Of a stretch of 64,000 nucleotides of DNA, positions 11,559 through 63,162 are shown piece by piece. The position numbers and the translations under genes were made by a program. The stretch is from Deltaproteobacteria bacterium (GTDB lineage: Bacteria; Myxococcota_A; Polyangia; Polyangiales; JADJMO01), in the NCBI GenBank assembly GCA_016182965.1, contig JACPFM010000075.1, positions 4,687 through 68,686 of the forward strand, in the 5' to 3' direction. Position 1 is the stretch's first letter. Every line of letters begins with the position of its first letter. Below the pieces are notes generated by a model. That model ran no database searches and had not been told where the DNA came from. It saw nothing but the letters and a program-made list of their open reading frames with translations.

Positions 11559-11650
11559 GGGTCGAAGGTCGAAGGTCGAAGTCGAAGTCGAAGGCGAAGG
11601 CGAAGGCGCTCGAGAGGTGCGGCTTCGACTGACGACTGACGACTGACGAC

Positions 11651-11652
<2 letters not shown>
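11559..11652. repeat. tandem heptamer/hexamer block (GGTCGAA)3(GTCGAA)2(GGCGAA)3, a 20-nt spacer, then (GACTGAC)3-4
   Basis: Direct reading. It is a chimera of one arm type from each of the two stem-loop families seen at 56041, 60024 and 62381. It sits inside the activase-dehydratase intergenic gap and abuts the 11651 stop. Confidence 0.8.
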
Positions 11653-15463
<3,811 letters not shown>

Positions 15464-17525: not shown

Positions 17526-18317
17526 TCACCCGCCGCGACGTCGCAGCTCCTCCTGCAATCGGCGCAGCTCGGCCTCCGCGCGCTCGGCGCGCTCGGTCTC
17601 GCGCTGGGCGCGCTCGGTCTCGCGTTCGGCGCGCTCGGTCTCGCGCTCGGCGCGCTCGGTCTCGCGTTGGGCGAGCTCACGCTCTTGCGCGGCGCGCTCC
17701 CAGTCCTCGGGCAATGGGCGTCCGTCGGCGTCGACCCAGCGGAGCCAGGGCGCGTCGACGCCGCGGCGGACGCCGCGCACCACGCCGAGCCAGAGGCCGA
17801 GCGGCTCGCAGAAGACCCGCCCGTGCTCGTCGGGCGCGAGCGGCTCGTAGGAGCGCCGCCCGGCCGCGAGCCGGAACGCATCGAGCCTCGCGGAGAAGGG
17901 GTCGTAGATCGCGTAGAACGGCACGCGCAGCACCCGCGCGTACACGTCCTTCTTCGTGCCGCGGTCGACGGCTTCGGTCGACTCGGAGGTGATCTCGATG
18001 ATCACATCGGGTGTACGCCCGTCCTCCTCCCACACGACCCAGCGTTTGCGCTCCTTGCGGTCGGTCTCGAGCACGACGAACACGTCGGGGGCGCGGAAGT
18101 CGTTCCGGCGGGCCTGCGTCTCGCTGAAGTACAGGCCCATGTTCCCGGCGGCGTAGAAGTCGGTGCGATCGCGCCACGCGTCGATCAACGAGTCGACCAG
18201 CAGGTTCATCTGGTCGCGATGGCGCTGCGTCTCCATGGGCTCACCGTCGTCGCAAGGGAGGTCCTCGCCACGCGGGGGCTTCGGGTGGAACGACGCCGAC
18301 ATGCTTCGAGGATTCAT
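17526..18317 (-). CDS. Uma2 family (DUF820) putative endonuclease with a repeat-encoded coiled-coil tail
   Basis: Core: YFSETQARRNDFRAPDVFVV...WVVWEEDGRTPDVIIEITSEST...D..KKDVYARVLRVPFYAIYDP, typical of Uma2. C-terminal tail: (RETERAE)x5. Confidence 0.75.
   Translation of the reverse strand: MNPRSMSASFHPKPPRGEDLPCDDGEPMETQRHRDQMNLLVDSLIDAWRDRTDFYAAGNMGLYFSETQARRNDFRAPDVFVVLETDRKERKRWVVWEEDGRTPDVIIEITSESTEAVDRGTKKDVYARVLRVPFYAIYDPFSARLDAFRLAAGRRSYEPLAPDEHGRVFCEPLGLWLGVVRGVRRGVDAPWLRWVDADGRPLPEDWERAAQERELAQRETERAERETERAERETERAQRETERAERAEAELRRLQEELRRRGG
17589..17672. repeat. 4 x 21-bp in-frame tandem repeat GCGCTCGGTCTCGCG(Y)T(S)GGC
   Basis: Direct reading. It encodes the RETERAE/Q heptads of the Uma2 tail. 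Confidence 0.85.
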
Positions 18318-34809: not shown

Positions 34810-35727
34810 ATGGGCGAGCTCGAAGTCCGCGAGGAGCTCGATTACCTGATCGGAGGTGTCCGCTCGCTGCTCGAGCAGCTGGCCGACTCCGGCGCGCTCG
34901 AGCTTCCCCACGGCGACTGGCACCCCGACACGAACGCGAACGCGAACGCGAACGCGAACGCGAACGCGAACGCGAACGCGAACGCGAACGCGAACGCGAA
35001 CGCGAACGCGAACGCTGACGCGCCTGCGCCTGCGCCTGCGCCTGCGCCTGCGCGTGCGCCTGCGCCTGCGCCTGCGCCTGCGCCTGTGCCCGTGCCCGTG
35101 CCCGCGCGCGCGCCTGCGTCCGAGCGCCGCGTCGTCGACGTCCCCGCCGACGCCGACGCCCGCCGCGTCCGGCTCGCCCAGATCGAACAGATCGCCGCGA
35201 CCTGCGGCCGCTGCGCGCTCCACGAGGGGCGCACCAACCCCGTGTTCGCGCGCGGCAACCCCGGCGCCGAGCTGATGTTCGTCGGCGAGGGACCGGGCGG
35301 CGACGAGGACGCGCAGGGGTTGCCGTTCGTCGGCAAGGCGGGGCAGCTGCTCGACAAGATGATCGTCGCGATGGGCTACCAGCCCGACGACGTCTACATC
35401 GCCAACATCGTGAAGTGCCGTCCTCCGAACAACCGCAAGCCGGAGCCCTCGGAGATGGCCGCCTGCGTCGGTTACCTGCACGAGCAGATCGCGCTCGTCC
35501 GCCCGAAGGCGATCGTCGCGCTCGGTGCCACTGCCTGCGAGGGGCTGCTCGGCATCGGCGGGATCACGCGCCTGCGCGGCACCTGGCGCCTGTACCGGGG
35601 CGAGATCCCGGTGATGCCGACCTTCCATCCCGCGTACCTGCTGCGGAAGCCCGAGGACAAGCGTCTCGTGTGGGCGGATCTGCAGCAGGTGATGGCGCGC
35701 CTCGGCAAGGCGCCGGCGAAGCGCTGA
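34810..35727 (+). CDS. uracil-DNA glycosylase family 4 with a repeat-encoded low-complexity N-terminal linker
   Basis: GGAGG precedes the ATG. Motifs: CALHEGRTNPVF, GEGPGGDEDAQGLPFVG, NIVKCRPP, HPAYLLR. The linker reads (NA)14 DAPAPAPAPAPARAPAPAPAPAPVPVPVPA. Confidence 0.9.
   Translation: MGELEVREELDYLIGGVRSLLEQLADSGALELPHGDWHPDTNANANANANANANANANANANANANANADAPAPAPAPAPARAPAPAPAPAPVPVPVPARAPASERRVVDVPADADARRVRLAQIEQIAATCGRCALHEGRTNPVFARGNPGAELMFVGEGPGGDEDAQGLPFVGKAGQLLDKMIVAMGYQPDDVYIANIVKCRPPNNRKPEPSEMAACVGYLHEQIALVRPKAIVALGATACEGLLGIGGITRLRGTWRLYRGEIPVMPTFHPAYLLRKPEDKRLVWADLQQVMARLGKAPAKR
34933..35016 (+). repeat. hexanucleotide microsatellite (AACGCG)13 plus one imperfect unit, in-frame in the UDG gene
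   Basis: Direct count from the sequence. Confidence 0.95.
35018..35100 (+). repeat. hexanucleotide microsatellite (GCGCCT)n degenerating to (GTGCCC)3, in-frame
   Basis: Direct reading. It encodes the PA/PV repeats. Confidence 0.9.
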
Positions 35728-49831: not shown

Positions 49832-50162
49832 GGCGAGAGGATAGGCGGGCGCGAGGCTCGAAGCGCTGCGCGCCGGGTCCCTGAGCACCGGCCGCTCGAA
49901 CCTGGCCGACCACCCGGATCGCTCCGCGGTGTTTCGGCTCGCGGAGCGGGATGAAGCGGGAGAGCGGCGAATCCGGATCGTCCACGACGTCCCGTTCCGA
50001 GCCGGCGACCTGCGCGCGTCAGTGCAACGCGTCGCGCGTGATCACCCACGTGTGTGCACGTCGTGTCTCGCGTTCGACACGCGCGAATGTGCGGTGCGAT
50101 GTGATAGTCAGATCGACAGGCGTGCTCTCGCGTTGATCGCAATCCCCGTCGACGAGGTGCTC

Positions 50163-52466
50163 ATGCGCAGCTTCTCTTGCCTTGGCATTGGCCTTCTGCT
50201 GACCGCGTTGACCGGGTGTGGCGGCGATTCGTCGGGCACCGGTGAGGCCGACACCGGCGAGGGCATCGCCGATACCGGCGGCGACGACACCGGCGCAGTG
50301 GTCGAGACCGGAACACCCGAGGACACGGGGGCGATCGACGACACGGGCGCGGTCGAGGACACCGGGGTGGCAGAGACGGAGGCCGACGCCGCCGACGCCG
50401 ACGAGGCGGGCGAGGCCTCGGCCGAGGCCGGCGAGGCCGGCGAGGACGCCGATGGCGGCGAGACCTGCGCGAAGACCGTGTGCACCACGACGGCCGGTGC
50501 GGTCTGCGTCGACACCACGTCCGACCCCGCGCACTGCGGCGCGTGCGGCAACGCATGCACCACGCCGGCCAACGCGTCTGCCACGTGCGCGTCGTCCTCC
50601 TGCGGGTTCGCCTGCAACACCGGCTACGGCGACTGCAACGGCAACGTGACCGACGGCTGCGAGAAGAGCCTGACCGACGATCCGGCCCACTGCGGGGCGT
50701 GCGGCACGGTGTGCGCGCTCGCGAACGTGGCGACCCACGGCTGCACGAGCGCCGGCTGCACGATCGCGACCTGCACCACGGACCATGCCGACTGCGACAC
50801 GACGGCGGCGAACGGCTGCGAGTCGAACCTCCCGACCGATCCGAACAACTGCGGCGCGTGCGGCAACAAGTGCACCCTCGCGCACGCCACCCCGAAGTGC
50901 GTGTCGAGCAAGTGCGAGATCGCTTCGTGCGACGCCGGGTACGTCGACCTCGACAAGAACCCGGCGAACGGCTGCGAGTACTCGTGCACGTCGAGCACCG
51001 GCGACGACAAGCCCGACGACGGCTTCGGCGACACGAACTGCGACGGCATCGACGGCGACCTCACCAAGGCGGTCTTCGTCTCCCCGACCGGCGACGACAC
51101 GACCGGCGACGGCACGATGACCAAGCCGTACCGCACGCTGACCAAGGCGATCACGGTGGCCGCGACCGCGAGCAAGGACGTGTACGCGGACAAGGGCGTG
51201 TACGTCGACACGTCCGTCAACCTCGCCGACGGCGTGGGCGTCTACGGCGGATACGACAGCACGACGCCGTTCAGCGGCGCACCTGCCGGGTACTGGGGCC
51301 GCGGCGCGGCCAACGTCTCGAAGATCACGGGCGGCACCCTCGCGGTCGCGGCCGTGGGCCTGACGAAGCCCACGATGCTCGATCTCTTCACCATCACGTC
51401 CGCGAACGGCTCCACACTGCCGAGCGGCGAGGGCGAACCGAGCGTCGGCGTGCTCGTGAGCAGCAGCGGCACTTACTTCACGCTGCGCGGATCGACGGTG
51501 ATCGCGGGGAATGGCGGGAACGGGACGGACGGCGCGTCGGCGACGAGCGGGGCGACAGGCTCGTCGGGGACGGCCGGGCAGGACGGACGGAGCAACGGGT
51601 CGGGTGGAGGATGCGGGAATAACGCCGCACCCGTGGCAGGCACCGCCGGCGTCGGTGGATGCGGCAACGCGGGCGCCGCCGGCGGCGCGGCCGGCCAGGG
51701 GACGGGTGGGGGCACGGCCGGCGCCACCGCGACCGGCGGCGCCACCGGTGGGCCGGGCGGTGCCGGAGCCGGGGCGTGTCCGGGCACCAGCGCGAGGGCC
51801 GGCGACGGAACCGTGGGCACCGCCGGTGCGAGCGGTGCCGCGGGTGCGCATGGCTTCGGGGGCAACGCTACCGGCAAGATCGTCGGCGGGCTTTGGGTCG
51901 CTTCGAGTGGCACCGATGGCGCCGTCGGCGTGATCGGCGGCGGCGGCGGCGGGGGCGGTGGTGGAGGCGGCGGCACTTCGGCGGGGACGGGCGGCGGCTG
52001 CTGCAACGCCTATGGCGGCGCCGGCGGTGGCGGTGGCGGCGGCGGCTGTGGTGGCGGCGCAGGTAAGGCCGGCAAGGGCGGCGGCGCTTCGTTCGCGCTC
52101 CTCGTCATCGGCTCCGACGTGACCATCGACAAGGTGAAGCTCACGAGCGGCAACGGCGGCGCGGGCGGCGCTGGCACCAACGGCGGTGCGGGGGGCGGCG
52201 GCGGCGCGGGCGGCGCGGGCGGCTCCGCGATCAACAACAGCGGCAAGGGCGGCGGCGGTGGCGTGGGCGGCAAAGGTGGCGACGGCGGCAACGGCGGCGG
52301 CGGCGGCGGCGGCCCGTCGATCGTCATCGCACGCAGCGGCACTTCGGTCATCACCCGGGTCGGCACGAGCACTTTCACCATCGGCGCGCGCGGCGCCGCT
52401 GGCAGCGGCTTCGTTCCCTCGCCGTCCAAGGACGGCGAGCGGGCCGAGGAGATGTCACTGCCCTGA
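50163..52466 (+). CDS. large surface lipoprotein: acidic DTG repeats, 3-4 Cys-rich DPAHCGACG repeats, a beta-helix-like region, and Gly-rich GGAGG repeats
   Basis: LLLTALTGCGG lipobox. Repeats DPAHCGACGNAC..C..SSCGF.C..GY.DC...GCE. TKAVFVSPTGDDTTGDGTMTKPYRTLTKAI is a typical parallel beta-helix N-cap. The C-terminal 300 aa are dominated by G(G/A)xGG tracts. Confidence 0.75.
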   Translation: MRSFSCLGIGLLLTALTGCGGDSSGTGEADTGEGIADTGGDDTGAVVETGTPEDTGAIDDTGAVEDTGVAETEADAADADEAGEASAEAGEAGEDADGGETCAKTVCTTTAGAVCVDTTSDPAHCGACGNACTTPANASATCASSSCGFACNTGYGDCNGNVTDGCEKSLTDDPAHCGACGTVCALANVATHGCTSAGCTIATCTTDHADCDTTAANGCESNLPTDPNNCGACGNKCTLAHATPKCVSSKCEIASCDAGYVDLDKNPANGCEYSCTSSTGDDKPDDGFGDTNCDGIDGDLTKAVFVSPTGDDTTGDGTMTKPYRTLTKAITVAATASKDVYADKGVYVDTSVNLADGVGVYGGYDSTTPFSGAPAGYWGRGAANVSKITGGTLAVAAVGLTKPTMLDLFTITSANGSTLPSGEGEPSVGVLVSSSGTYFTLRGSTVIAGNGGNGTDGASATSGATGSSGTAGQDGRSNGSGGGCGNNAAPVAGTAGVGGCGNAGAAGGAAGQGTGGGTAGATATGGATGGPGGAGAGACPGTSARAGDGTVGTAGASGAAGAHGFGGNATGKIVGGLWVASSGTDGAVGVIGGGGGGGGGGGGGTSAGTGGGCCNAYGGAGGGGGGGGCGGGAGKAGKGGGASFALLVIGSDVTIDKVKLTSGNGGAGGAGTNGGAGGGGGAGGAGGSAINNSGKGGGGGVGGKGGDGGNGGGGGGGPSIVIARSGTSVITRVGTSTFTIGARGAAGSGFVPSPSKDGERAEEMSLP

Positions 52467-52506: not shown

Positions 52507-52782
52507 TCACCAGGCGACGGTGACCGGCGTGTTCGCAAATGTCTTGGTGAAGCCGTCGCCGAGTTCACCGTCCCAATTGATGCCGGCGGCCTTCATGCCG
52601 TCTGCGTACCAGACGAGCGTATGCGTATCGGCCCCTTTGAAGCCGACGATCGCCGGTGGAAACTTCGAGGGTACGGGCGCGAAGCGATCGACGAACGCAC
52701 CGTCGGCGAGCTGCCCCTCGGTGCCTTGTCCCCAACACCAAAGGGTGTCTCGTCGGCCGAACGCGCGCTCTGAGACGACTCG
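52507..52782 (-). pseudogene. RCC1-repeat gene fragment with no usable start codon
   Basis: DTLWCWGQGTEGQLADG...THTLVWYADGMKAAGINWDGELGDG are RCC1/beta-propeller blade signatures. The frame is bounded upstream by the 5'-nucleotidase gene end and contains no ATG or GTG. Confidence 0.4.
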
Positions 52783-52784
52783 CT

Positions 52785-54512
52785 TCAGTCGATCTTCACG
52801 TTCTTCGGCGCGCCGTCGCAGCCCTGCGCTTCCAGCTGCGGCAGCGCCGCCGCGTACAGATCGCGGATGCGCACCGGCGAGGTGCGCGTCGCGCTGCACG
52901 TCACGCCCTCGAGGAAGGCGTCGCCGCCGTAGAGGAGGAAGTCGGGCATGACGATGACCACCTCGTCCTTCGCCGGACCCTCGAAGAGGTTGATCGCGTC
53001 GAGCACCAGCGGCACGTCCTTGGTGCGGTGCGCGCGGAGTTCGGCGCCGGCGATGCCGAAGGGGAATCGATCGCGTGTGGAGACCTTCTTCGCCATGTTG
53101 CCGAGCGCGCGCTCGAGACCGGCGCGCGTGGTGGTGCAGGTCGACAGCGCGTTCTCGAACGGCAGCACGGCGAACAGATCGCGGTTGCGCACCGGGCCGG
53201 CGAGGATCGGCGCGCGGATGCCGCCGGAGTTCACCACCGCCACGGCCGCGGCGTCCTTCGAGACGAGCCCCTCCTTGCGGGAGCGTTCGAGCATGGCGCG
53301 CGCGATCGACTCGGCGAGCGCGGTGCCGTTCGCCGACTGCGGCAGGCAGATGCGCGGGACCTTGGCGATGACGCGGTCGGCCTCGACGCGCACCGAGTCG
53401 ATCCACGGGCGCACGGCGGCGGCCACGCGCTTGCCGAGATCGCTCCGGGGCGGATCGCTGGCGAACGCGACGTGGCGCTCGAGGGTGTGCATCGACATCC
53501 TGCCATCACTGCCACGACAGAAGCGCGTCTCGGCGTAGCCGACGCCGTGCTGATCGCTCGACACCACCGGCACGCCGCGCACCCGCCCGAGCATCCACGC
53601 GTGCCGGTGACCGGCCACGACCAGGTCGGGCAGATCGGCGCCGAGCCCGTCGAGGAGCGAGGCGATCTCGCCCTGGTGCTTGTCGCCGCGCGGATCCTTC
53701 GGATTGTCGAGATCCTGCGGCAGCTCCCCCTCGATCGACGCGTGCGCGACGAGGATGATCGGCGAGGCGCCGGCCGCGCGCGCCGCGCGGATGCTCTCGC
53801 CCACGTACGGTGCGCCCTCGTCGAACGAGAGGCCGTCGACGTTCGGCTTGAGCGTCGTGGTCGGCGTCTCGCGCGTCGAGTAGCCGACCACGCCGACCCG
53901 GAACCCGCCGCGCTCGACGAGCGTCCACGCGCGCGCGTGCGGCCACGCGGGCGAGCCGCTCGCGGAGGTGCGCAGGTTCGCCGAGAGGAAGGAGAACTTC
54001 GCGTCGGCGATGCGCGCGAGCAGCGCGCCGCGCGGGCCCTCGGGGCCGTCGGCGTCGGTCTTGTTCGGCTGCGCGACGACGCGCTCGTAGCCGACCGGGC
54101 CGAAGTCGAACTCGTGGTTGCCGATGGCCGCCGCGTCGACGCCGAGGACCGCGTAGGCGGCGATGACCGGCGCACCCTCGGACATCGTGCTCTCCATCGG
54201 CCCGGTGAACAGATCACCCGCGTCGACCACGAAGACCGGCTCACCATGCTTGCGGACAGCATCGACGTGATCGGCGAGCGCGATGACGCCGCCCGCCGGC
54301 ACGCGCCCGGTGTCGATGAAGGCCTCGTCTGCCCCGAGCTGCCCGTGCAGGTCGTTCCACGAAATCACGCGCAGACACTGCTCGGTCGCGGCGACCTGCG
54401 GAGGCGAAGCGGCGGGCGGGCAGCCGGAGGCGAGGGCGAGCGTCGCGGAGAGAGCGAGGAGTCGACGCGCCACGGCCCAGGAGGCTAGCGCACCGCGGCG
54501 TCGCTTTCCCAC
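52785..54512 (-). CDS. bifunctional metallophosphatase/5'-nucleotidase lipoprotein (UshA-like)
   Basis: LALASGC lipobox. Motifs NDLHG, DAGD, GNHEFDFG, and a C-terminal 5'-nucleotidase domain. Confidence 0.85.
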   Translation of the reverse strand: MGKRRRGALASWAVARRLLALSATLALASGCPPAASPPQVAATEQCLRVISWNDLHGQLGADEAFIDTGRVPAGGVIALADHVDAVRKHGEPVFVVDAGDLFTGPMESTMSEGAPVIAAYAVLGVDAAAIGNHEFDFGPVGYERVVAQPNKTDADGPEGPRGALLARIADAKFSFLSANLRTSASGSPAWPHARAWTLVERGGFRVGVVGYSTRETPTTTLKPNVDGLSFDEGAPYVGESIRAARAAGASPIILVAHASIEGELPQDLDNPKDPRGDKHQGEIASLLDGLGADLPDLVVAGHRHAWMLGRVRGVPVVSSDQHGVGYAETRFCRGSDGRMSMHTLERHVAFASDPPRSDLGKRVAAAVRPWIDSVRVEADRVIAKVPRICLPQSANGTALAESIARAMLERSRKEGLVSKDAAAVAVVNSGGIRAPILAGPVRNRDLFAVLPFENALSTCTTTRAGLERALGNMAKKVSTRDRFPFGIAGAELRAHRTKDVPLVLDAINLFEGPAKDEVVIVMPDFLLYGGDAFLEGVTCSATRTSPVRIRDLYAAALPQLEAQGCDGAPKNVKID

Positions 54513-54570
54513 TGGAGTGGACCACGCTCAGGGGTGACCCCAAACATCCATCGTGGTAACCGGCCCGACC

Positions 54571-55989
54571 ATGAGCGAGAAGGCGACGAGGAGCTACGAC
54601 GCGGTGGTGATCGGCGGCGGCCCGGGCGGCTACACGTGCGCCATCCGGCTCGGTCAGCTCAAGGTGAAGACCTTGTGCATCGAGAAGGAGGAGGTCGGCG
54701 GCGTGTGCCTGAACTGGGGCTGCATCCCGAGCAAGGCGCTCATCGCGAACGCCCACACGTTCGAGAAGATCAAGCACGGCGCCTCCACCGGCATCATGGT
54801 GGCCGAGCCCAAGCTCGACGTTGCCAAGATGCAGGAGTGGAAGAACGGCATCGTCAAGAAGCTCACCGGCGGCGTCCGCCAGCTCATCAAGGGCAACGGC
54901 TCCGAGCACCTCTACGGCACCGCGAAGATCGTCGGGAAGAACCGCATCGAGGTCCAGACCCGCGAGGGCGGCAAGGAGATCATCGAGGCGAAGAACATCG
55001 TCGTCGCCACGGGCGCCACGACGATCGAGATCCCCACCTTCAAGTTCGACGGCAAGTCGATCATCGGCGCGCGCGAGGCGGTCTCGCTGCAGGAGATCCC
55101 CAAGCGCCTGCTGGTCATCGGCGGCGGCGTCATCGGCCTCGAGCTCGGGTGCGTCTACCAGTCGTTCGGCGCGCAGCTCACGGTCGTCGAGGCGACGCCG
55201 GGCCTGCTCCCCGGCACCGATCCCGACTGCACCGCGGTCCTCGAGCGCCGCATGACCAAGAAGGGCGCGAAGATCTACAAGAACGCCAAGGCCATGGGCT
55301 ACGAGAAGACCGCCAACGGTCTCGCGGTGAAGCTCGACCTCGGCGGCGGCAAGGCCGAGACGGTCGAGACCGACGTGGTCCTCGTCGCGGTCGGCATGCG
55401 CCCGAACGGCAAGGGCCTCGGCCTCGAGGAGATCGGCGTCAAGGTCGACGAGCGCGGCTTCGTCCCAAGCGACAAGCTGTGTCGCACGAACGTGCCGAAC
55501 GTCTACTCGATCGGCGACGTCTCGCAGCCGCCGCTCCTCGCGCACAAGGCGGTGAAGGAGGGCGAGATCGCCGCCGAGGTGATCGCCGGCCACAAGGCCG
55601 AGCGCGACTGGGTCTCCATCGCCGGCGCGATCTTCACCGATCCCGAGATCGCCTCCGTCGGCATGACCGAGGCGCAGGCGAAGGAGAAGGGCATCGAGGT
55701 CCGCGTCGGCAAGATGCCGTTCGCCGCCAGCGGCCGTGCGATGGCCGTGCAGGAGACCGACGGCTTCATCAAGACCGTGATCGACGCGAAGAGCCACCAG
55801 GTGCTCGGCGTGCACATCGTCGGGCCGTCGGCGTCGGACCTGATCAGCGAGGCCGCGCTCGCGGTCGAGATGGCGGCGTTCGCCGAGGACATGGCGCTGA
55901 CCATCCACCCGCACCCGACGCTGGGCGAGGCGATGATGATCTCGGCGCAGCACTCGATCGGCATCGCGGTCGACATCATGAATCGCTGA
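54571..55989 (+). CDS. lpdA: dihydrolipoyl dehydrogenase
   Basis: GGGPGGY FAD motif, redox-active GGVCLNWGCIPSK, GGGVIGLE NAD motif, and C-terminal HPHPTLGE. Confidence 0.9.
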   Translation: MSEKATRSYDAVVIGGGPGGYTCAIRLGQLKVKTLCIEKEEVGGVCLNWGCIPSKALIANAHTFEKIKHGASTGIMVAEPKLDVAKMQEWKNGIVKKLTGGVRQLIKGNGSEHLYGTAKIVGKNRIEVQTREGGKEIIEAKNIVVATGATTIEIPTFKFDGKSIIGAREAVSLQEIPKRLLVIGGGVIGLELGCVYQSFGAQLTVVEATPGLLPGTDPDCTAVLERRMTKKGAKIYKNAKAMGYEKTANGLAVKLDLGGGKAETVETDVVLVAVGMRPNGKGLGLEEIGVKVDERGFVPSDKLCRTNVPNVYSIGDVSQPPLLAHKAVKEGEIAAEVIAGHKAERDWVSIAGAIFTDPEIASVGMTEAQAKEKGIEVRVGKMPFAASGRAMAVQETDGFIKTVIDAKSHQVLGVHIVGPSASDLISEAALAVEMAAFAEDMALTIHPHPTLGEAMMISAQHSIGIAVDIMNR

Positions 55990-56040
55990 GGGCGTGTCGA
56001 TTCCGGGGCGCCCTCGCCGCTCGACTTGGCGTCTGGGCTT

Positions 56041-56140
56041 GGTCGTCAGTCGTCAGTCGTCAGTCGTCAGTCAGAGAGAGACCGAGAACGGCTGCTCTCT
56101 CGTCTCGGGCTGACGACTGACGACTGATGACTGATGACCC
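56041..56140 (+). repeat. long imperfect stem-loop: (GTCGTCA)4 arm, central GAGAGAG/CTCTCTC segment, (TGACGAC)2(TGATGAC)2 arm
   Basis: Direct reading. It starts 52 nt after the lpdA stop. The two TGATGAC units retain pairing as G-U only in the plus-strand RNA. Confidence 0.85.
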
Positions 56141-56322
56141 ATCCTGCGCGAGCAGCGACACGGCGGATCTCCGCGAGCGGCGACCGACCCGTCACGCACG
56201 TGTGACACTGGCACGCGGACGCGAACGCTCCGCGACGACCGGCAGCGGCGAAACCGCGAGAAATCTCGCACGGGAGCTCGCGGCTCGCCGCTTGCTTCGT
56301 CCAGTGGCGGAGGAAAACTTCG

Positions 56323-56553
56323 ATGACGCTGTTCCGCTGGACCGTGGTGCTGACCCTGACGATCGCCGGTTCCACCACGCCGTCGACCGCTGCGGCGCCA
56401 GCCTCGGCTCCGGCTCCGGCGAGGCATGCGTCCAAGGAGGCCTCCGCGTCCCCGCGCGTCGAGCGTCCGGCGGACCTCGAGGCGCGCGTCGAGCTCGGCC
56501 CCGCGGTCGTCTACATCTTCGACGAGGCGGGGCACGTCGTCTCGGTCGAGTGA
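56323..56553 (+). CDS. small secreted protein (76 aa)
   Basis: GGAGGAAAA precedes the ATG. Signal-like MTLFRWTVVLTLTIAGS. Confidence 0.45.
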   Translation: MTLFRWTVVLTLTIAGSTTPSTAAAPASAPAPARHASKEASASPRVERPADLEARVELGPAVVYIFDEAGHVVSVE

Positions 56554-56890
56554 CGGCGCGTGGGTCGAAGGCAAGGGGTCGAAGACGGGTTCGCGGGCTT
56601 CGTCATGGACTCGGCGTGCTCGCTCTGCATGGTGTCCCCTCGGTCGGACGCTTGGTCGGACCTTCGGTCACCAGCAGCGACCGTGCCGCGCGACGGGCTG
56701 GCCGCCGGCGTGCGGCACGCTGTGTCGCCGGCGAAACGGACGAGGCGCCGCGGCGGGCGCGAGCGATGGAGCGCCTGCGCCAGATCCGCAGACGGTGCGC
56801 CCGAGTTGCACGGCTGCGTGCGACGCCTTGGCCGCGCGGGGAGCCGCAACCCGGCGGCGGTGGAGCAGCACGATCGAGCTGGGCCTGAGG

Positions 56891-57934
56891 CTACTCCTCC
56901 GCGCCTCCAAGCCCGTGTTGCTCCCGTCCCGGCTTGCCGTCGTAGCCCGTCGTGGACTTGTACAGCTCGTACCGGCCGTCGCGCGCGTGCTTCCGCATGC
57001 GCTCGCGGAGCGACGTCATCTCTTCCTTCGTCATCGGCTTCAGCTCGCGCGCGATGCGGAGGTTCTGCTCGAGGACGTGCACCGAGTCGATGCCGCTCAC
57101 CACGCTCGCGACGGGCAGCGAGAGCGTGTAGCGGAGCGCCTCCTCCGGGCTGATCACGCCGGCCTTCACCGCCTCGCCGCCGCCCGACAGCGCCTTCATC
57201 CCGAGGACGCCGAGGCCCCGCTCCCGGGCGCGCGGCAGGACCTTCTGCTCGAACGACCGGAAGCTCGCGTCGAAGACGTTGAGGGGCATCTGCAACGTGT
57301 CGAAGGGAAAGCCCTTGTCGATCATCGCGAGGAGCAGCGACGGGTCCTTGTGGCCGGTGAAGCCGACGAAGCGCGCCTTGCCCTGCTTCTTGGCGAGCGC
57401 CACGCCCTCGAGCACGCCCTCGGTCGCGTAGTGGCGGTCGGGATCGTCGTCGTAGATGACCTCGTGCACCTGCCAGAGATCGAGGTGGTCGGTCCTCAGG
57501 CGCTTCAACGATTGCTCGAGCTGCTTCATCGCCTCGGCCCTGCCGCGCCCGTGCGTGCAGACCTTGGTCATGACGAACGCCTGCTGGCGCTTGCCGACGA
57601 GCGCCTTGCCGAGCCACTCCTCCGACTTGCCGTCGTGGTACTCCCACGCGTTGTCGAAGAAGGTCATCCCCGCGTCGATCGAGGCGTGCACCACCCGCTT
57701 CGCCTCGTCCTCGTCCTTCAGCACCCCGAGGTGGTAGCCGCCGAGCGCGAGGATGGAGACCTCGACGCCGGTCTTGCCGAGCGCGCGTCGCGGCAGCTTG
57801 CCGGGCACCGCGATCGTCGGGGCGGCTGCCGCGCTCTCGGACGGGAGGACGAGGCTGGCGGCCGCGCCGGCGAAGACGCCGAGGCTGCGAAGAACGTCTC
57901 GTCGAGACTCGTCGGGACCACGTGCGCGCGCCAT
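56891..57934 (-). CDS. aldo/keto reductase with a Tat signal peptide
   Basis: SRRDVLRSLGVFAGAAA. AKR motifs: LGKTGVEVSILALGG, FFDNAWEY, DLWQVHE. Confidence 0.85.
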   Translation of the reverse strand: MARARGPDESRRDVLRSLGVFAGAAASLVLPSESAAAAPTIAVPGKLPRRALGKTGVEVSILALGGYHLGVLKDEDEAKRVVHASIDAGMTFFDNAWEYHDGKSEEWLGKALVGKRQQAFVMTKVCTHGRGRAEAMKQLEQSLKRLRTDHLDLWQVHEVIYDDDPDRHYATEGVLEGVALAKKQGKARFVGFTGHKDPSLLLAMIDKGFPFDTLQMPLNVFDASFRSFEQKVLPRARERGLGVLGMKALSGGGEAVKAGVISPEEALRYTLSLPVASVVSGIDSVHVLEQNLRIARELKPMTKEEMTSLRERMRKHARDGRYELYKSTTGYDGKPGREQHGLGGAEE

Positions 57935-57962
57935 GCTCGACGAGAGAGCAAGGCGGCGGCCA

Positions 57963-58700
57963 TCAAACGGCCGCGATGGCGGAGGGATCTTCGCCGATCA
58001 TGCGCAGGTACGCGTGCGCGCTGGCCAGCATGATCACCGGCAGCGCGACGAGCACGCCGACGCCGAGTGCGAGCAGACCGAGCAAGAGCACGAGCCCGCT
58101 CGCGAAGCCGAGGCCGAGGAGCCTGAGGCGCAGGCCGCGCGTGGTCCGAAAGCTCAGCCCCAGCGACTCGACGGCGGAGGCGCGCCGATCGGCGACGAGC
58201 CAGAGCGCGTTCGACAGGGCGAGCGACACGACGATCCCGGGGACGATCAGGGCGATCATCGATACGAGTGTGGCGAAGAGGACGAGCAGGCTCGCGCCGG
58301 TCATCGACAGCAACGCGTCGCCGCCCGAGCAGAGCATCGACGCACGCACCTCCTCGCCGCGCGCGGCGGCGAGGTAGACCCGGTAGAGGCCGACGCTGAC
58401 GAACGAGCCGACCAGCAGGTTCGCGACATGCGGGAGCACGGCGACCGCAGCCACGAGCGGCAGAGGTTCGCCCGATACCGCCATCGCGAGCACGCCTCCC
58501 GCGGCGCCGCTCATCCAATCGAAGCCGAAGATCAGCGCGTACCCGAGCACGGTCGAGGCGCTGAGCGCGAAGCCCTGGCGCTTGTACGAGCGCCACGCCG
58601 CGCCGAGGACCTCACCGGCGGTGAAGGCGCGCGCAGGACGAATCGGGACTGCGGTTGCGGTGGGAGCGGAGGGAGGAGCGTAGAGATGGGCGACGTTCAT
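57963..58700 (-). CDS. integral membrane protein (5-6 TM), unknown function
   Basis: Hydrophobic helices from the ATG at 58700. Good GC3. Confidence 0.55.
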   Translation of the reverse strand: MNVAHLYAPPSAPTATAVPIRPARAFTAGEVLGAAWRSYKRQGFALSASTVLGYALIFGFDWMSGAAGGVLAMAVSGEPLPLVAAVAVLPHVANLLVGSFVSVGLYRVYLAAARGEEVRASMLCSGGDALLSMTGASLLVLFATLVSMIALIVPGIVVSLALSNALWLVADRRASAVESLGLSFRTTRGLRLRLLGLGFASGLVLLLGLLALGVGVLVALPVIMLASAHAYLRMIGEDPSAIAAV

Positions 58701-58811
58701 GCAGACTGGTCGACCGCCGCTCGCCGCCGGTTGCGCGCGAGCCTCATCGAAGTTCTGGCTGCGCCGCCCCTCGGGGCGGTGCGGGCCGCCGGCGTGCCAA
58801 CCTGTGCGCGC

Positions 58812-59081
58812 ATGTCGCTCGGGGCGCGAGACACCCGTCCGGTCATCGAGGAGCGCCTGCTGCAGCTCTACCGGGCGATGACGCCCGAGCAAAGAGCGGC
58901 CCGCGTGTTCGTCCTCACGCGCACGACGCGCACGGCCCGTCAGCTGTCCGCTGCGCGCATCCGGCGCGACCACCCGGAGCTGTCCGACCGCGAGGTCGAG
59001 GCGCGCGTCGCTGCCCTGGCGTACGGCCGCGATCTCGTCCGGCGGGCGACGGGGATCGACCCCGGTCCGGAATACGAATGA
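58812..59081 (+). CDS. small helical protein (89 aa), possible antitoxin-like partner of the downstream nucleotidyltransferase remnant
   Basis: IEERLLQLYRAMTPEQRAARVFVLTRTTRTARQLSAARIRRDHPELSDREVEARVAALAYG. ATGA overlap with the next ORF. Confidence 0.4.
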   Translation: MSLGARDTRPVIEERLLQLYRAMTPEQRAARVFVLTRTTRTARQLSAARIRRDHPELSDREVEARVAALAYGRDLVRRATGIDPGPEYE

Positions 59082-59227
59082 GCTCGTTCGAGCAGGGCGA
59101 CGCGCTCGCCGCGGTGCTCCGGGTCGGCGCGGCGCTCGATGAGCTCGGCGTCACCTACGCGGTGGGCGGCTCGTTCGCGAGCTCGGTCCAAGGCGTGTTC
59201 CGAACGACGAACGACGTCGACGTGCGC
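59078..59227 (+). pseudogene. truncated nucleotidyltransferase-fold gene (N-terminal 50 codons only)
   Basis: LGVTYAVGGSFASSVQGVFRTTNDVDV is the GS...D.D NTase motif. The frame then degenerates into Arg-rich sequence overlapped by a well-supported minus-strand gene. Confidence 0.4.
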
Positions 59228-59239
59228 GGGCCATCGGGT

Positions 59240-59860
59240 TCAGCGCCTCGGCGCGACGCGCTTGGGGACCGTCCATTTCGCGCCGACGATCCACTTCTTG
59301 CCGTCGAAGACCAGCTCCTGGTGCGGCACATCGTCGCAGCCCTCGTCGCACTGTCCCACGACCTCGAGCTTGCGGACGCCGTTGACCACGCCGAGCGTGC
59401 CGACGATGCGCCCTTCGACACGGACGCCGCCGAGGTGCTGCGCGCAGCCGCCGCGGCGCACGTAGATCTCCCAGCGCGTGGTGGTCTCGTCGCGATCGGC
59501 GGCGAGGATCGGATCGGGGGTGCCGTCGTCGTCGATGTCGAAGGCGTGAACGGCCGGCAGGTAGTATGGGCGGCCGCCTTCGTCGACGAGATCGTTCACG
59601 ATGGCGGCGTGGCGGATCGGGTCCCAGCAGGGCGCCGCGTCCTTGCCGGTGCCGGTGGTGCCGAGGACTGCGCTGTCGAGGAGCGCCTGTTTGGCCGTCC
59701 TTCGCTCCGCCGGCGCCGACAGCGCATGCCCCGCGCTCGCGACGGGCGTGCGCGCTTGGGGCGACGTCGCGACGGAGCGCGACGACGGCTGCGTGCCCGA
59801 AGCGCAGGCGAGCGGCGCGACGAGCAGGAACAGGCCCACGGAGAGGGAGCGGACGATCAT
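59240..59860 (-). CDS. lipoprotein of unknown function
   Basis: MIVRSLSVGLFLLVAPLACAS lipobox. FDIDDDGTPDP is a FG-GAP/VCBS-like motif. Confidence 0.6.
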   Translation of the reverse strand: MIVRSLSVGLFLLVAPLACASGTQPSSRSVATSPQARTPVASAGHALSAPAERRTAKQALLDSAVLGTTGTGKDAAPCWDPIRHAAIVNDLVDEGGRPYYLPAVHAFDIDDDGTPDPILAADRDETTTRWEIYVRRGGCAQHLGGVRVEGRIVGTLGVVNGVRKLEVVGQCDEGCDDVPHQELVFDGKKWIVGAKWTVPKRVAPRR

Positions 59861-60023
59861 GACGCTCCCAGGCACCTGCACGCGACGCGCCGAGCACGAG
59901 CGGGGCCGTGCCCAGCCCTTTCCGTGCGACGATGCGGCCAGTCATGCCCGCGATGGTCGCGCGCTTCAGACTCGCCTTTCGCCCCTTCGCGGCCACCGCG
60001 TCGCGCCGTGCCGTGTCGGGCCA

Positions 60024-60107
60024 GGTCGAAGGTCGAACGTCGAAGGTCCAAGAGGCCGGCCCAAAAAGGCCCGCTCCCTTCGACCTTCGACCTTTGACCT
60101 TCGACCT
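60024..60107 (+). repeat. stem-loop with heptamer arms: GGTCGAAGGTCGAACGTCGAAGGTCCAAGAGG ... CCCTTCGACCTTCGACCTTTGACCTTCGACC
   Basis: Direct reading. It lies in the divergent region just upstream of the ABC transporter start (60130). Confidence 0.85.
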
Positions 60108-60129
60108 ACGAAGCCGAAGCAGCGAGCGG

Positions 60130-61623
60130 GTGTCGGCCGAGAAGGGCGAAAGTCGAGTCGGAGCGAACGCCCGCCTGGTCGCGTGCGTGATCTTCGCGCT
60201 CGGGTTGCTCGTCTCGTCGACGGCCTCGGCGCGACTGCGTTGGGGCGCCGACGCCGAGGGCGGGGCGCCGTACGTGCTCCGCGATCCGAAGGCGCCGGAC
60301 AAGGTGATCGGCTTCGAGGTCGATCTCGCGGAGGCGTTGAGCCGGGAGGTCGGCGAGCCCATCGACTTCGTCCAGTACGAGTTCGGCTCGCTGCTCCCGG
60401 GCCTCGAGCGCGGCGACCTCGACCTCGCGATGAACGGCCTCGAGATCACGCCCGATCGCGTGCAGCGCGTGCGCTTCTCGCGGCCGTACTACGTGTACCG
60501 GTTGCAGCTGGTGGTGCGCGCCGACGACGCGCGCTTCGCCGGCTTCGACGCGTGCGCGGCCGCGAAGTGCGTCGTCGGCACGTTGGGCGACACCGCGGCC
60601 GAGCGCCTCCTCGACGCGCGCGGCGTCGCCAAGCGCGTGTACGACGGGCAGGCCGAGCCCTATCGCGATCTCGGGCTCTCGCGGCTCGACGCGGTGCTCC
60701 TCGACGTCCCGGTGGCCACGTACTGGGCGCGCCCCGATCCGAAGCTGCGGTTCGTCGGCGAGCCGTTCGCGCGGGGGCTCTACGCCATCGCGTTTCGCAA
60801 GGACCGCGAGGCCCTCGCGGTGCGGTTCGACGGCGCGATCGAGCGCCTCGCCGCGCGCGGCGAGCTCGAACGCATCTACAAGAAGTGGAGCCTCTGGTAC
60901 GACGAGCAGAGGTCGCTCGGCGCGCTCGGAGCCGCCGACGAGTCGGCGCGGACGTGGGGCGAGGAGTCTGCGCGCGCCTGGACCCCCGCGCGCTACCTGC
61001 CGCTGCTCTTGCAGGGGGCGCTCACCACCATCCTCATCGCCGTCGTGAGCATGGTGCTGGCGGTGCTCCTCGGGTTGCCGATCGCGGTCGCGCGGATGTG
61101 GGGACCGTGGCCCGTGCGGTGGCTCGCGACCGCCTACGTCGAGCTGTTCCGGGGCGTGCCGGTGCTGCTGCTGATCTTCTTCCTCTACTACGGGCTGCCG
61201 ACGCTCGGCGTGAAGCTGAGCGCGATCAGCGCGGCCATCCTCGGCTTCGGGCTCAACTACGCGGCCTACGAGGCGGAGATCTACCGCGCTGGGATCGCCT
61301 CCATCCCGGTCGGGCAGTGGGAGGCGGCCGCGTCGCTCGGGATGGGGCGGCGCCTCACCTTCCGCCGGGTCATCCTCCCGCAGGCGTTCCGCGTGGTGTT
61401 GCCGCCGATGACCAACGACTTCGTCGCGCTGTTCAAGGACACGAGCCTGGTGAGCGTGATCGCGGTCGTCGAGCTGACCAAGCAGTATCAAATCCTCGCC
61501 AAGTCGAGCATGAAGTACCTGGAGATGGGGGCGGTCACCGCGGCGCTGTACCTGCTCATCGCGGTGCCGCTCGGCGCGTGGTCGCGGCGCCTCGAGGCGC
61601 GCGCGTCGAAGGGGGCGGGGTGA
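60130..61623 (+). CDS. polar amino-acid ABC transporter, fused substrate-binding and permease protein
   Basis: Signal peptide. SBP family 3 motifs: GFEVDLAEAL, DLAMNGLEIT, RFSRPYY. Permease EAA-type loop: EAAASLGMGRRLTFRRVILPQA. Confidence 0.85.
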   Translation: MSAEKGESRVGANARLVACVIFALGLLVSSTASARLRWGADAEGGAPYVLRDPKAPDKVIGFEVDLAEALSREVGEPIDFVQYEFGSLLPGLERGDLDLAMNGLEITPDRVQRVRFSRPYYVYRLQLVVRADDARFAGFDACAAAKCVVGTLGDTAAERLLDARGVAKRVYDGQAEPYRDLGLSRLDAVLLDVPVATYWARPDPKLRFVGEPFARGLYAIAFRKDREALAVRFDGAIERLAARGELERIYKKWSLWYDEQRSLGALGAADESARTWGEESARAWTPARYLPLLLQGALTTILIAVVSMVLAVLLGLPIAVARMWGPWPVRWLATAYVELFRGVPVLLLIFFLYYGLPTLGVKLSAISAAILGFGLNYAAYEAEIYRAGIASIPVGQWEAAASLGMGRRLTFRRVILPQAFRVVLPPMTNDFVALFKDTSLVSVIAVVELTKQYQILAKSSMKYLEMGAVTAALYLLIAVPLGAWSRRLEARASKGAG

Positions 61624-62372
61624 GCGCGCTCATCGACGTCGGCGGCGTGCGCAAGCGCTTCGGCGAGCACGAGGTGCTCGCCGGGATCGATCTGGTCGTC
61701 CCCGAAGGGGAGACGATCGCGCTCATCGGCCCGAGCGGGGGCGGGAAGTCGACGCTGCTCCGCTGCATCAACGGGCTCGCGAACTTCGATCAAGGGCGCA
61801 TCCAGGTCGGCGCCTGTACGCTGCACCCCACGCGCGATCCGCGCGAGAGCCGCGCCGCCGCGCGCGACGCGCGCAAGCTCGTGGGGATGGTCTTCCAGGA
61901 CTTCCAGCTGTTTCCGCACATGACCGCGCTCGAGAACGTCGCCGAGGCGCCGATCCACGTGCGCGGCCTGCCTCGACGTGAGGCGCACGAGCGCGCGCGC
62001 GCCCTGCTCGCGCGCGTCGGACTCGAGGCGCGCGCCGACGCCCTGCCGCGCGAGCTCTCCGGCGGTCAGAAGCAGCGCGTGGCGATCGCGCGTGCGCTGG
62101 CGATGGAGCCCAAGGCGCTCCTCTGCGACGAGATCACCAGCGCGCTCGACCCCGAGCTCAAGGGCGAGGTGCTCTCGGTGATCGAGAAGCTGCGCGCCGA
62201 GGGGATGACCCTGGTCCTGGTCACCCACGAGATCGGCTTCGCGCGCCGCGCCGCCGATCGCGCGGCGGTGCTCGCCGACGGCGCGATCGTCGAGAGCGGG
62301 CCGGCGCGCGAGCTGATCGACCGCCCGCAGACCGAGCGCACCCGGCGCTTCCTCGAGCGCGTGATGGCGTGA
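61620..62372 (+). CDS. amino-acid ABC transporter ATP-binding protein
   Basis: Walker A GPSGGGKST, Q-loop, signature LSGGQKQRVAIARAL, Walker B LLCDEITSALD. GTGA overlap with the permease stop. Confidence 0.9.
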   Translation: MSALIDVGGVRKRFGEHEVLAGIDLVVPEGETIALIGPSGGGKSTLLRCINGLANFDQGRIQVGACTLHPTRDPRESRAAARDARKLVGMVFQDFQLFPHMTALENVAEAPIHVRGLPRREAHERARALLARVGLEARADALPRELSGGQKQRVAIARALAMEPKALLCDEITSALDPELKGEVLSVIEKLRAEGMTLVLVTHEIGFARRAADRAAVLADGAIVESGPARELIDRPQTERTRRFLERVMA

Positions 62373-62380
62373 CCGGGCCC

Positions 62381-62667
62381 AGTCGTCAGTCGTCAGTCGT
62401 CAGTCGTCAGTCGTCAGTCGTCAGTCGGAGCCGATCGCGCCCTTCTCCGCTGGATGCTCGTCGCCGCGCCGGCTCCCGAGGTCGAGGGTCCAAGGTCGAA
62501 GGTCGAACGTGAGACGGGGTTCGGCTGCTTTCTGCCTTCGACCTTCGACCTGGCGCATGCGACAGGTGCGCGCGCCGAGACCTGGTAGGAGGCGCAAGTC
62601 GCGTGGAGCGAGAGGCGCCGGTCTCCCGTCTCGAGCTGACGACTGACGACTGACGACTGATGACCCG
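62381..62667 (+). repeat. nested composite stem-loop: outer (AGTCGTC)6 / (GACGACT)3-4 arms enclosing an inner GGTCGAA/TTCGACC hairpin (62480-62552)
   Basis: Direct reading. The right flank GAGAGGCGCCGGTCTCCCGTCTCGAGCTGACGACTGACGAC... is homologous to 56084-56140. It lies between convergent genes. Confidence 0.85.
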
Positions 62668-62718
62668 GTCCCCGCGAGCGGCGACACGGCGAACGCTCGA
62701 GCGTCGCGGGCGCCCGCG

Positions 62719-63162
62719 CTAAATCCTGAGCATCGTGCCGCGGCACTCCGGCGAGCCGCAGCTGCACACCGTCTCGACCATCGCGGTGATCGCGTCGACG
62801 TCACCGGTGATCTCGAGCGCGTAGTCGTAGGTGATCTCCTCGCCCTTCGCGATCGGCTCGATCGCCACGAGGAACACGCGCTTCTTGTAGACGAGCAGCT
62901 GCGCGTTCGGGGAGCACGCGTGGTTGGCGAAGCGGGCGTCGCTGCCGCCGACCGCGCCGTCGATCGAGGTCCGCGCGTCGATCGCGAGCAGCTGCACGGC
63001 CGCGTCGGGCCTCGACGCGTAGCGCCGGCGCGCCTCGGCGCGGGTGACCCGCTCGCCCGTGTACTCGATGATCGGCGTGCCCTCGGCGATGTCCTCGGCG
63101 GCGAACAGCCCCTGGCCGTGCACGCGCGATCTCTTCACCTTGACCTTCGGAAAGCCCTTCAC
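62719..63162 (-). CDS. SET domain protein (putative lysine methyltransferase)
   Basis: SRVHGQGLFAAEDIAEGTPIIEYTGE, RFANHACSPN, GEEITYDY, and a post-SET CSCGSPEC. Confidence 0.85.
   Translation of the reverse strand: MKGFPKVKVKRSRVHGQGLFAAEDIAEGTPIIEYTGERVTRAEARRRYASRPDAAVQLLAIDARTSIDGAVGGSDARFANHACSPNAQLLVYKKRVFLVAIEPIAKGEEITYDYALEITGDVDAITAMVETVCSCGSPECRGTMLRI

Follow-up and report, generated by a model that had tools for sequence, protein, structure and literature searches.

A composite foldback of two heptamer-array families in a convergent intergenic gap of an uncultured Polyangiales genome

What fills the gap between two convergent genes, one for an ABC transporter ATPase and the other for a SET-domain protein, in the genome of an uncultured soil member of the Polyangiales (Myxococcota), and how might it have arisen? 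The stretch of this genome that we analyzed, "the window" in what follows, is 64,000 nucleotides long (metagenome contig JACPFM010000075.1; positions are counted from the first letter of the window) and has a G+C content of 70.6%. A previous inspection of the letters alone, the sequence-only reading, had noticed that the gap is filled by a nested stem-loop whose outer and inner arms are built from two different tandem-heptamer families. That description holds: the four arms lie where they had been placed, both arm families are found by Tandem Repeats Finder (TRF), by an exact period-7 scan and by folding, and the element, here called C, takes up the 346-nt gap from the ATPase stop codon at 62372 to the SET stop codon at 62719. 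It is well supported that C combines two dispersed intergenic foldback elements in one composite. Its parts (to which no strand is assigned) and its two neighbours are as follows:

61620-62372, plus strand: ABC transporter ATPase, last gene of an SBP/permease-ATPase operon (Pfam ABC_tran 8e-33; GC3 gene call)
62375-62691, no strand: composite foldback C as a whole, made up of the outer palindrome (62375-62671) and the conserved flank to its right, as far as 62691 (inverted and direct repeats, folds)
62380-62427, no strand: outer left arm of C, perfect (CAGTCGT)6.9 (TRF score 96, 100% matches; exact period-7 run of 48 nt)
62428-62478, no strand: left spacer of C, 51 nt (pairs imperfectly with 62579-62635 in the fold)
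62479-62507, no strand: inner left arm of C, (AGGTCGA)4.1, with variant units GGTCGAG and GGTCCAA (TRF, direct repeats)
62508-62534, no strand: inner loop of C, 27 nt (sequence reading, fold)
62535-62551, no strand: inner right arm of C, (CCTTCGA)2.4 (TRF, period-7 scan, direct repeats)
62552-62605, no strand: right spacer of C, which contributes a small side hairpin to the multi-branch fold (fold)
62606-62635, no strand: non-array segment of C beside the arm, with the motif TCTC.CGTCTCG.GC, common to hairpin A at 56080-56109 (direct repeat, 83% identity)
62636-62664, no strand: outer right arm of C, (CTGACGA)4.1, 95% matches, the last unit being the variant TGATGAC (TRF, period-7 scan)
62665-62691, no strand: conserved right flank of C, CC(N7)CGCGAGCRGCGACACGGCG, present also in hairpin A at 56139-56165 (direct repeat)
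62719-63162, minus strand: SET-domain protein, converging on C (Pfam SET 4e-22; translation)

TRF and the period-7 scan agree on the location of the arrays, which are far beyond chance: the window contains ten exact period-7 runs of at least 17 nt, against 0.54 (maximum 2) in 100 dinucleotide shuffles, and nine of the ten belong to the outer or the inner unit family. The sequence GGGCC stands between the ATPase stop codon (62370-62372) and the outer left arm, which begins 7 nt past the stop (stop 62372, arm from 62380); an 84-nt spacer separates the inner from the outer right arm, and 54 nt lie between the latter and the SET stop codon. The nested hairpin structure is real. An inverted-repeat search matches 62375-62410 to 62636-62671, the two being 89% complementary, and the region 62370-62680 folds into a multi-branch structure of -181.2 kcal/mol on the plus strand, compared with -143 +/- 4.9 for shuffles (z -7.8; none of 100 shuffles is as good), and of -173.1 kcal/mol (z -6.6) on the minus strand. 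The outer arms are unequal (6.9 and 4.1 units), so the fold ensemble is divided between two registers one heptamer apart, with probabilities of 0.58 and 0.42; the idea that such arms can slip in register is thus borne out computationally.

Two solo hairpins and one hybrid locus elsewhere in the window carry arrays of the same units:

56035-56165, no strand: hairpin A, solo copy of the outer element, arms 56042-56072 and 56110-56138 (TRF, repeat alignment, fold)
60023-60148, no strand: hairpin B, solo copy of the inner element plus its homologous flank, arms 60023-60052 and 60077-60111 (TRF, alignment, fold)
11560-11651, no strand: locus D, a hybrid of (GGTCGAA)3 passing into (GTCGAA)2 and (GGCGAA)3 hexamers, then (CGACTGA)3.7 (TRF, period-7 scan)

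The kinship of C to hairpins A and B, proposed earlier from their units, is confirmed by strong folds and shared flanks. Hairpin A, whose left arm begins 52 nt past the stop codon (55989) of lpd (the gene of dihydrolipoyl dehydrogenase), folds at -81.6 kcal/mol on the lpd sense strand (z -9.1) and at -68.4 kcal/mol on the opposite strand, and hairpin B folds at -67 to -78 kcal/mol (z -7.4 to -8.8); together A and B span z -6.4 to -9.1. A homologous flank had been noticed between A and C, and it is real and longer than was claimed: 56080-56165 and 62606-62691 form an 86-nt direct repeat of 83% identity that includes array and non-array sequence, namely the right arm together with about 30 nt of the loop before it and 27 nt of the flank after it. 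Both right arms contain the variant unit TGATGAC, GGGC precedes both left arms, and within the 64 kb the loop motif (chance expectation 0.05 matches) and the right-flank motif are each confined to these two sites. The left spacer of C at 62438-62478 is in turn homologous, in reverse complement, to the right flank of B at 60108-60148, with 26 of 41 ungapped identities outside the array (including CGCCCTTCTC) against a chance estimate of about 29% identity at this base composition, and the variant units GGTCCAA and ACGTCGA are present in both hairpin B and the inner hairpin of C. Since non-array flanks and variant units are shared between A and C and between B and C, C is best described as a B-type element, inverted, inside the loop of an A-type element, and the shared non-array sequence indicates that, at least here, the hairpins have spread as elements. 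A metagenome scan for the loop-plus-arm motif specific to A and C, CGTCTCGNGCTGACGACTGACGAC, gave no matches and thus no further copies of this element. Locus D, which had been overlooked among the hairpin kin, is placed between two co-oriented minus-strand genes, and the first base of its array overlaps the TGA stop of the upstream gene (encoding a 1284-AA BadF/BcrA-type ATPase). An assembly or adapter artefact was considered and rejected for all of these arrays, as they lie inside contigs between genes and occur also in isolate genomes (a complete Streptomyces chromosome, Marichromatium gracile DSM 203 and Lyngbya).

Intergenic heptamer repeats are said to have been reported in bacteria since 1990, when Mazel reportedly described the STRR heptamers of cyanobacteria. 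It is well supported that C belongs to a known, functionally unsolved class among them, intergenic heptanucleotide simple-sequence repeats in inverted pairs: its four arrays have 2.4 to 6.9 units, where a heptamer repeat is taken as at least two head-to-tail units (14 nt), they lie outside coding sequence between the stop codons at 62372 and 62719, and opposite-strand arrays of one unit stand close together and are able to form a stem-loop. As this class has already been described, C is a further example and not a new class. Rehm et al. (2015; PMC4692102) found about 185 (GGGAATC)n arrays per Xanthomonas genome, and GGGGA(C/T)T arrays in Nostoc; two Xanthomonas genomes have 70 and 75 convergent opposite-strand array pairs capable of forming stem-loops, and the Xanthomonas arrays are seldom flanked by divergent genes (7-8%), their neighbours being mostly co-oriented or convergent, and differ in length between related species. 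Mrazek (2007), as cited there, reported heptamer repeats to be over-represented in many bacteria, possibly through polymerase slippage. Like C, these are tandem 7-nt units, typically of about four copies, that are dispersed and intergenic; unlike C, they belong to another phylum, have different and G-quadruplex-forming units, and do not show the shared non-array flank or the nesting of two unit families seen here. The description of stems with microsatellite arms as unusual was therefore overstated, given the Xanthomonas pairs and the 91 metagenome stretches with hairpins of the outer unit described below. What the window adds is a myxobacterial example whose copies share non-array sequence, the nesting of one unit family within another in a single element, and a location where gene order departs from that of the nearest relatives.

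It is likewise well supported that the outer unit, when read as CGACTGA, is a GC-rich relative of the NNACTGA heptamers of the TAACTGA/STRR type. MacGregor (2015; PMC4679880) described TAACTGA repeats in Beggiatoaceae, cyanobacteria and Bacteroidetes, nearly all as direct repeats (one inverted case in 170 sets) and mainly just upstream of start codons. The outer unit shares with them the ACTGA core, an intergenic location that often abuts the ends of coding regions, and a patchy distribution across phyla; the inner unit GGTCGAA lacks the ACTGA core, and the arrays of the window follow stop codons or form hairpins instead of standing as direct repeats before start codons. In Geobacter metallireducens, Aklujkar et al. 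(2009; PMC2700814) found tandem MTYCTGA heptads, with five repeats in 15 of 16 sites, and 49 copies of a GGACCGG heptad array with four repeats. These are likewise multicopy heptamer arrays with a CTGA-ending unit in a then-deltaproteobacterial host, and a regulatory role was proposed for them; they differ in having a fixed copy number (4 or 5), in being read as regulator-binding sites or RNA elements, and in being intragenic in some cases. A literature search for CGACTGA, TGACGAC, GTCGTCA, GGTCGAA and TTCGACC as repeats found nothing relevant in the library searched. Rfam gave no matches in the whole window at gathering score, and in a permissive search of 55950-62800 only matches far below it; of the outcomes that the sequence-only reading would have counted against itself, a match to an already catalogued family is thus answered negatively for Rfam, and yet the elements fall within an already described repeat class.

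Nor are the elements confined to the window. A scan of one genome per species found (GTCGTCA)3 in at least 107 genome loci, where our own arithmetic gives an expectation of about 0.3 in 596 Gb for a random 21-mer, tandem repeats not being random sequence. Among the matches listed in that scan (loci L001-L107) the carriers are Acidobacteriota, Chloroflexota, Actinomycetota (six Streptomyces, one a complete chromosome), cyanobacteria, Planctomycetota, Verrucomicrobiota, Bacteroidota, Patescibacteria, an archaeon and a Polyangia metagenome-assembled genome; CGACTGA arrays in these listed matches have TAACTGA, TGACTGA, CCACTGA, CAACTGA and CTACTGA arrays as neighbours and co-occur in other genomes with arrays of AACTGAT, ACTGATG, ACCACTG and AACTGAC, and about one array in six listed has an inverted partner within 400 nt. 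In metagenomes, the pattern of two units, 15-45 nt and then two complementary units retrieved outer-unit hairpins in 91 stretches of 44-73% G+C; their loops are unrelated to one another, and in their flanks the palindrome often goes on or is followed by variant units that retain the CAGT core. The inner unit, as (GGTCGAA)3, is present in 15 contigs of the viral collection, where it forms hairpins in three cases and has variant units that are also seen in the window, and a blastn search of a plasmid collection gave no match. One viral-collection contig, L216 (IMGVR_UViG_3300037518_000430, 12.4 kb, 60% G+C), contains 14 arrays of the GGTCGAA/TTCGACC type, among which there are two hairpins, and one of its hairpins shares the motif AACGTCGAAGGTCCAAG beside the loop with hairpin B.

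Two of these outside loci bear on how the arms change. A heptamer hairpin at L115 1011-1073 recurs in seven near-identical metagenome contigs (L115, L184, L192, L199, L142, L186 and L189), and its alleles show a whole-unit swap of CAGTCGT to CAGTAAT in one arm at constant total length. Its 90-nt gap lies between what we take to be L35-like and L20-like genes, the proteins having been recognised by eye from their sequences. L109, a related Polyangiales contig that comes from the same sample, has heptamer-array hairpins in two intergenic gaps of its ATP-synthase operon:

16601-16714 of L109: hairpin 1, (GTCTAGA)n/(TCTAGAC)n, -88.6 kcal/mol, between the PF00231 ATP-synt and ATP-synt_ab genes
18486-18574 of L109: hairpin 2, (GTCGTCA)n/(GACTGAA)n, between the ATP-synt_ab and OSCP genes

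The GACTGAA arm of hairpin 2 carries one identical mismatch in each unit, uncompensated in the GTCGTCA arm, and the presence of the same mismatch throughout one arm indicates that the arms homogenise separately. Evolution of the arms by slippage and independent drift is in this way partly shown. The earlier claim that the arms change length finds indirect support, and this at other loci only, from the unit swap in near-identical strains and from the one-arm homogenisation in L109.

Comparison with the nearest relatives places the three hairpins at differences in gene order. Homologues of the window Lpd at up to 84% identity are labelled Polyangiales, Polyangiaceae or Myxococcales, and the closest relative is L204/L205, whose Lpd is 91% identical. 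The genes around the hairpins, besides the two that flank C, are:

52785-54512, minus strand: 5'-nucleotidase
54553-55989, plus strand: lpd, dihydrolipoyl dehydrogenase
56891-57934, minus strand: aldo-keto reductase
57963-58700 and 59240-59881, minus strand: two unknown genes
about 60190-61623, plus strand: SBP_bac_3/permease fusion
from 63164, minus strand: GH92

L205 aligns to the window by blastn at 52781-55982, 56913-57806, three shorter patches within 57991-59542, and 60207-62372, and the breaks in homology to L205 and L112 (window 55983-56912, 59543-60206 and 62373-62730) are the very stretches that bear A, B and C. In L205 the site of A is taken by a canonical U-tailed terminator with a 2.4-kb Pel9A-like gene after it, and the site of B by a GntR/aminotransferase gene. 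Homology to both relatives stops at the ABC ATPase stop codon, past which L205 has a 28-nt gap and then another gene; in L112 the SET gene and the ABC operon are likewise convergent, but with two genes between them (344 AAs and GH31), and past the ATPase there is an unrelated 146-nt hairpin (11585-11730, -85 kcal/mol). In the relatives a canonical U-tailed terminator lies downstream of lpd, and in L206, L208 and L231 what follows lpd is different in each. It appears from these alignments, which establish the point in part, that A, B and C came to their present positions within this lineage alone, at points whose gene content is not that of the nearest relatives. Repeat-mediated deletion or rearrangement and insertion into regions already in flux are both histories compatible with the breaks; recombination between loci, which had been attributed to such arms, is suggested by the exact coincidence of A, B and C with the homology breaks, and not shown by it. 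For annotation, it is of note that heptamer hairpins can occupy places at which relatives have canonical terminators, and that they break metagenome assemblies. The hairpin past the ATPase in L112 belongs to another family of palindromes, long and GC-rich (TTCACCACGGAGGCACGGAG... / ...CTCCGTGGTGAA, -85 kcal/mol) that occupy convergent gaps in L112 at 11585-11730 and in L108/L109 at about 15250-15450; L108 and L109 are identical as far as these palindromes and differ beyond them, either genuinely or because of a chimeric assembly.

The order of the arms is invariant, an observation that is new here. In 24 of 24 inverted pairs (19 loci of the unbiased genome set among the matches listed plus A and C, with L209-L211 counted separately) the GTCGTCA arm comes first and the TGACGAC arm last, and the reverse order never occurs; the viral collection has three stretches with GTCGTCA first and none reversed, and in all five GGTCGAA hairpins the GGTCGAA arm is first. 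For other heptamer units the sample is small, and the arm order conforms in two and not in one (L011). The helix is identical in either order, so its stability does not explain the polarity. A three-frame stop insulator was considered as the cause, (TGACGAC)n having TGA in all frames; GGTCGAA/TTCGACC has no stops and is similarly polar, so this was rejected as a general explanation.

The hairpins also have a characteristic position relative to genes, as judged with a crude GC3-based gene caller that was checked on the window. With both neighbours called (n=54), 36 hairpins lie between tandem, 15 between convergent and 3 between divergent genes (one of the 3 being a calling error), compared with 131 tandem, 39 convergent and 47 divergent background gaps of the same loci; hairpins are thus rarer in divergent gaps (Fisher p=0.005), and the spacers between hairpin and gene are mostly under 50 nt. 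Single arrays show a weak pattern with respect to gene orientation (counts 79, 56, 49 and 53). Among the matches listed, the base x at x-AGTCGTC boundaries is T in 22 of 38, yielding TAG, and the fused stops terminate long open reading frames in about 10 of 28 cases against 11 of 56 control frames, locus D of the window being alike; that arrays begin at stop codons is suggestive only, the enrichment over control frames being weak, and was not used.

We read C, with confidence that lies about midway, as a REP/BIME-like foldback of slippage-prone heptamer arrays that acts, or is tolerated, as a 3'-end RNA stem-loop. The arms would gain, lose and homogenise units through replication slippage, and the two arms of a hairpin would drift independently. 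In a transcript from either of the converging genes, C would then fold as a multi-branch stem-loop of great stability that lacks a U-tail. Most likely it would act, or merely be tolerated, as a REP/BIME-like 3'-end structure that blocks 3'-5' exonucleases as well as read-through in the gap that parts the ABC-transporter operon from the SET gene, and not as a canonical intrinsic terminator. It is known that REP-type mRNA stem-loops without U-tails can stabilise upstream mRNA. REP, BIME and REPIN sequences (for REPINs see Bertels and Rainey 2011, PMC3116915) resemble the present hairpins in being dispersed extragenic palindromes, single or composite, at gene 3' ends or between cistrons, and rarity between divergent genes is common to both (3 of 54 hairpins against 47 of 217 background gaps here, by the crude caller). 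A REP unit, by contrast, has a fixed form, an imperfect palindrome some 20-40 nt long whose 5' GTAG is conserved, and is mobilised by RAYT transposases, whereas the arms here are variable-length microsatellites, and no GTAG was found when the borders of C, A and B were read. The position data and the absence of strand bias (below) together place the hairpins in the niche of REP-like extragenic palindromes, with no positive sign of selection on RNA.

A good deal weighs against the REP-like reading. The RNA role of C is purely what we infer, and the strict arm polarity is not explained by a stem-loop role. Among 37 hairpins in tandem context the sense fold is the better in 20 and the antisense fold in 17 (p=0.39), and this lack of a sense-strand bias means that there is no G-U signature of selection on RNA; hairpin A favours the lpd sense strand, but in view of the unbiased set of 37, G-U asymmetry was discarded as a sign of RNA-level selection. 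Few of the metagenome hairpins with flanks displayed have a T-run after the stem, and a consensus scan of 55900-62800 found no U-tailed terminator-like sites and no U-tract after the stems. Hairpin B is not at a 3' end but stands upstream of the transporter operon, between divergent genes, and the fold of locus D is weak (z -0.8 to -1.4). The uncompensated mismatch in L109 argues against strong selection for pairing. The gene contexts, finally, depend on the crude caller, which got at least one locus wrong (L142, called divergent, is really tandem).

The most serious rival, and a more interesting idea than the REP-like reading, is that C is a selfish mobile foldback comparable to MITE or Foldback elements, in which the arrays would be oriented terminal repeats recognised by a transposase or other polar machinery, the RNA structure a by-product and the nesting an insertion; we consider it unlikely, while giving it more weight than any of the other alternatives. 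Foldback (FB) and Galileo transposons of Drosophila have long inverted terminal repeats made of short tandem repeats that vary in length, are prone to ectopic recombination and are located at rearrangement breakpoints; they are also eukaryotic, kilobase-scale elements with a transposase in some copies and with target-site duplications, neither of which is seen here. Strict polarity (24 of 24, 3 against 0 and 5 of 5) is what oriented terminal repeats would give, A and C as well as B and C share non-array sequence, relatives have the orthologous sites with no elements in them, nesting is typical of mobile repeats, the folding shows no sense-strand bias, and GTCGTCA units are found in many phyla. 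This explanation is opposed by the borders, where a MITE should have terminal inverted repeats within direct target-site duplications: the inverted arms are there, but the borders of A and C are inverted (GGG...CCC) and not direct repeats, flanks being either inverted (GGGC...CCC) or unrelated; no candidate duplication was convincing (GTGTCGG on both sides of hairpin B is compatible with chance), and at other loci the palindrome simply runs on into the flanks. As to internal sequence, the loops of A and C have about 30 nt in common but differ in their left halves, and loops are unrelated across organisms, including the 92 metagenome hairpins, unlike those of a MITE family. Among the 19 window open reading frame translations scanned, which sample 64 kb of the genome, there is no transposase or RAYT (Y1 transposase) domain and no insertion sequence element, and we know of no autonomous partner for heptamer foldbacks.

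A related and broader possibility, which we hold more doubtful still and which is suggested by analogy with Foldback/Galileo, is that a dedicated polar machinery widespread in bacteria (a transposase, recombinase or nucleic-acid-binding protein that reads heptads one way round) makes such foldbacks or acts on them, and that they form a pan-bacterial mobile class. Neither a simple stem-loop role nor orientation-blind slippage or duplication explains an invariant arm order together with the same units in distant phyla; cross-phylum units, strict polarity, avoidance of divergent gaps and lack of a sense-strand bias argue for some directional process. Polarity, the cross-phylum hairpin, divergent-gap avoidance and the absence of a folding bias would be useful handles if they hold genome-wide.

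Rather improbable, to a similar degree, is that the heptad arrays are platforms for a single-strand nucleic-acid- or DNA-binding regulator, with one protein per 7 nt, the hairpin masking or exposing the sites and C regulating the flanking operons. The recurrence of the NNACTGA-type core in neighbouring arrays across many phyla (among the matches listed) and the frequent abutment of arrays on stop or start codons are in keeping with such a role, as are the S1, Csp or CsrA-like binders proposed for TAACTGA (PMC4679880) and the "global regulator sites" of five MTYCTGA heptads proposed in Geobacter (PMC2700814). It is countered by the lack of a candidate protein, by an inner GGTCGAA family without the ACTGA core, by the fast turnover of unit number and sequence, and by the closest relatives, which do not have the sites at the same genes.

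Independent microsatellite expansion at each site, followed by local inverted duplication through template switching, with no dispersal and with likeness due to convergence, would account for loops and flanks that are unrelated between hairpins of different organisms, and the excess of heptamers reported from many bacteria, for which polymerase slippage is a possible cause (Mrazek 2007, cited in PMC4692102), is in keeping with it. It fits poorly with the 57 nt of non-array sequence and the TGATGAC variant that A and C share, with the flank and variant units common to hairpin B and the inner hairpin of C, and with the 24:0 polarity, which an orientation-blind duplication would not yield, and we regard it as improbable. 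That C is a canonical bidirectional intrinsic (Rho-independent) terminator is most improbable of all: the convergent gap and the GC-rich stem would suit one, and relatives do have a canonical terminator past lpd at the position of hairpin A, but such a terminator combines a GC-rich stem-loop with a U-tract, and the hairpins of 55900-62800 have a U-tract on neither side (downstream of the right arms stands CCCGGTCC or CCCATCCT), that region contains no terminator-like sites, the stems are far longer than terminator stems, and related hairpins lie within essential operons.

No sigma-70-like promoters were found in 55900-62800. The window has other repeats that are not of the heptamer kind. A perfect (CGAACG)14 followed by (GCGCCT)16 occupies 34931-35118, in the N-terminal part of a uracil-DNA-glycosylase-family gene (34810-35727), and these hexamer microsatellites are coding, for (NA)14 and then a (PA)n-like linker. 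GGC-rich repeats of 3, 9 and 27 nt lie at 51935-52313 within the open reading frame 50133-52466, and a 21-nt unit (5.8 copies) and a 23-nt unit (3 copies) are present at 17579-17699 and 9550-9621, respectively.

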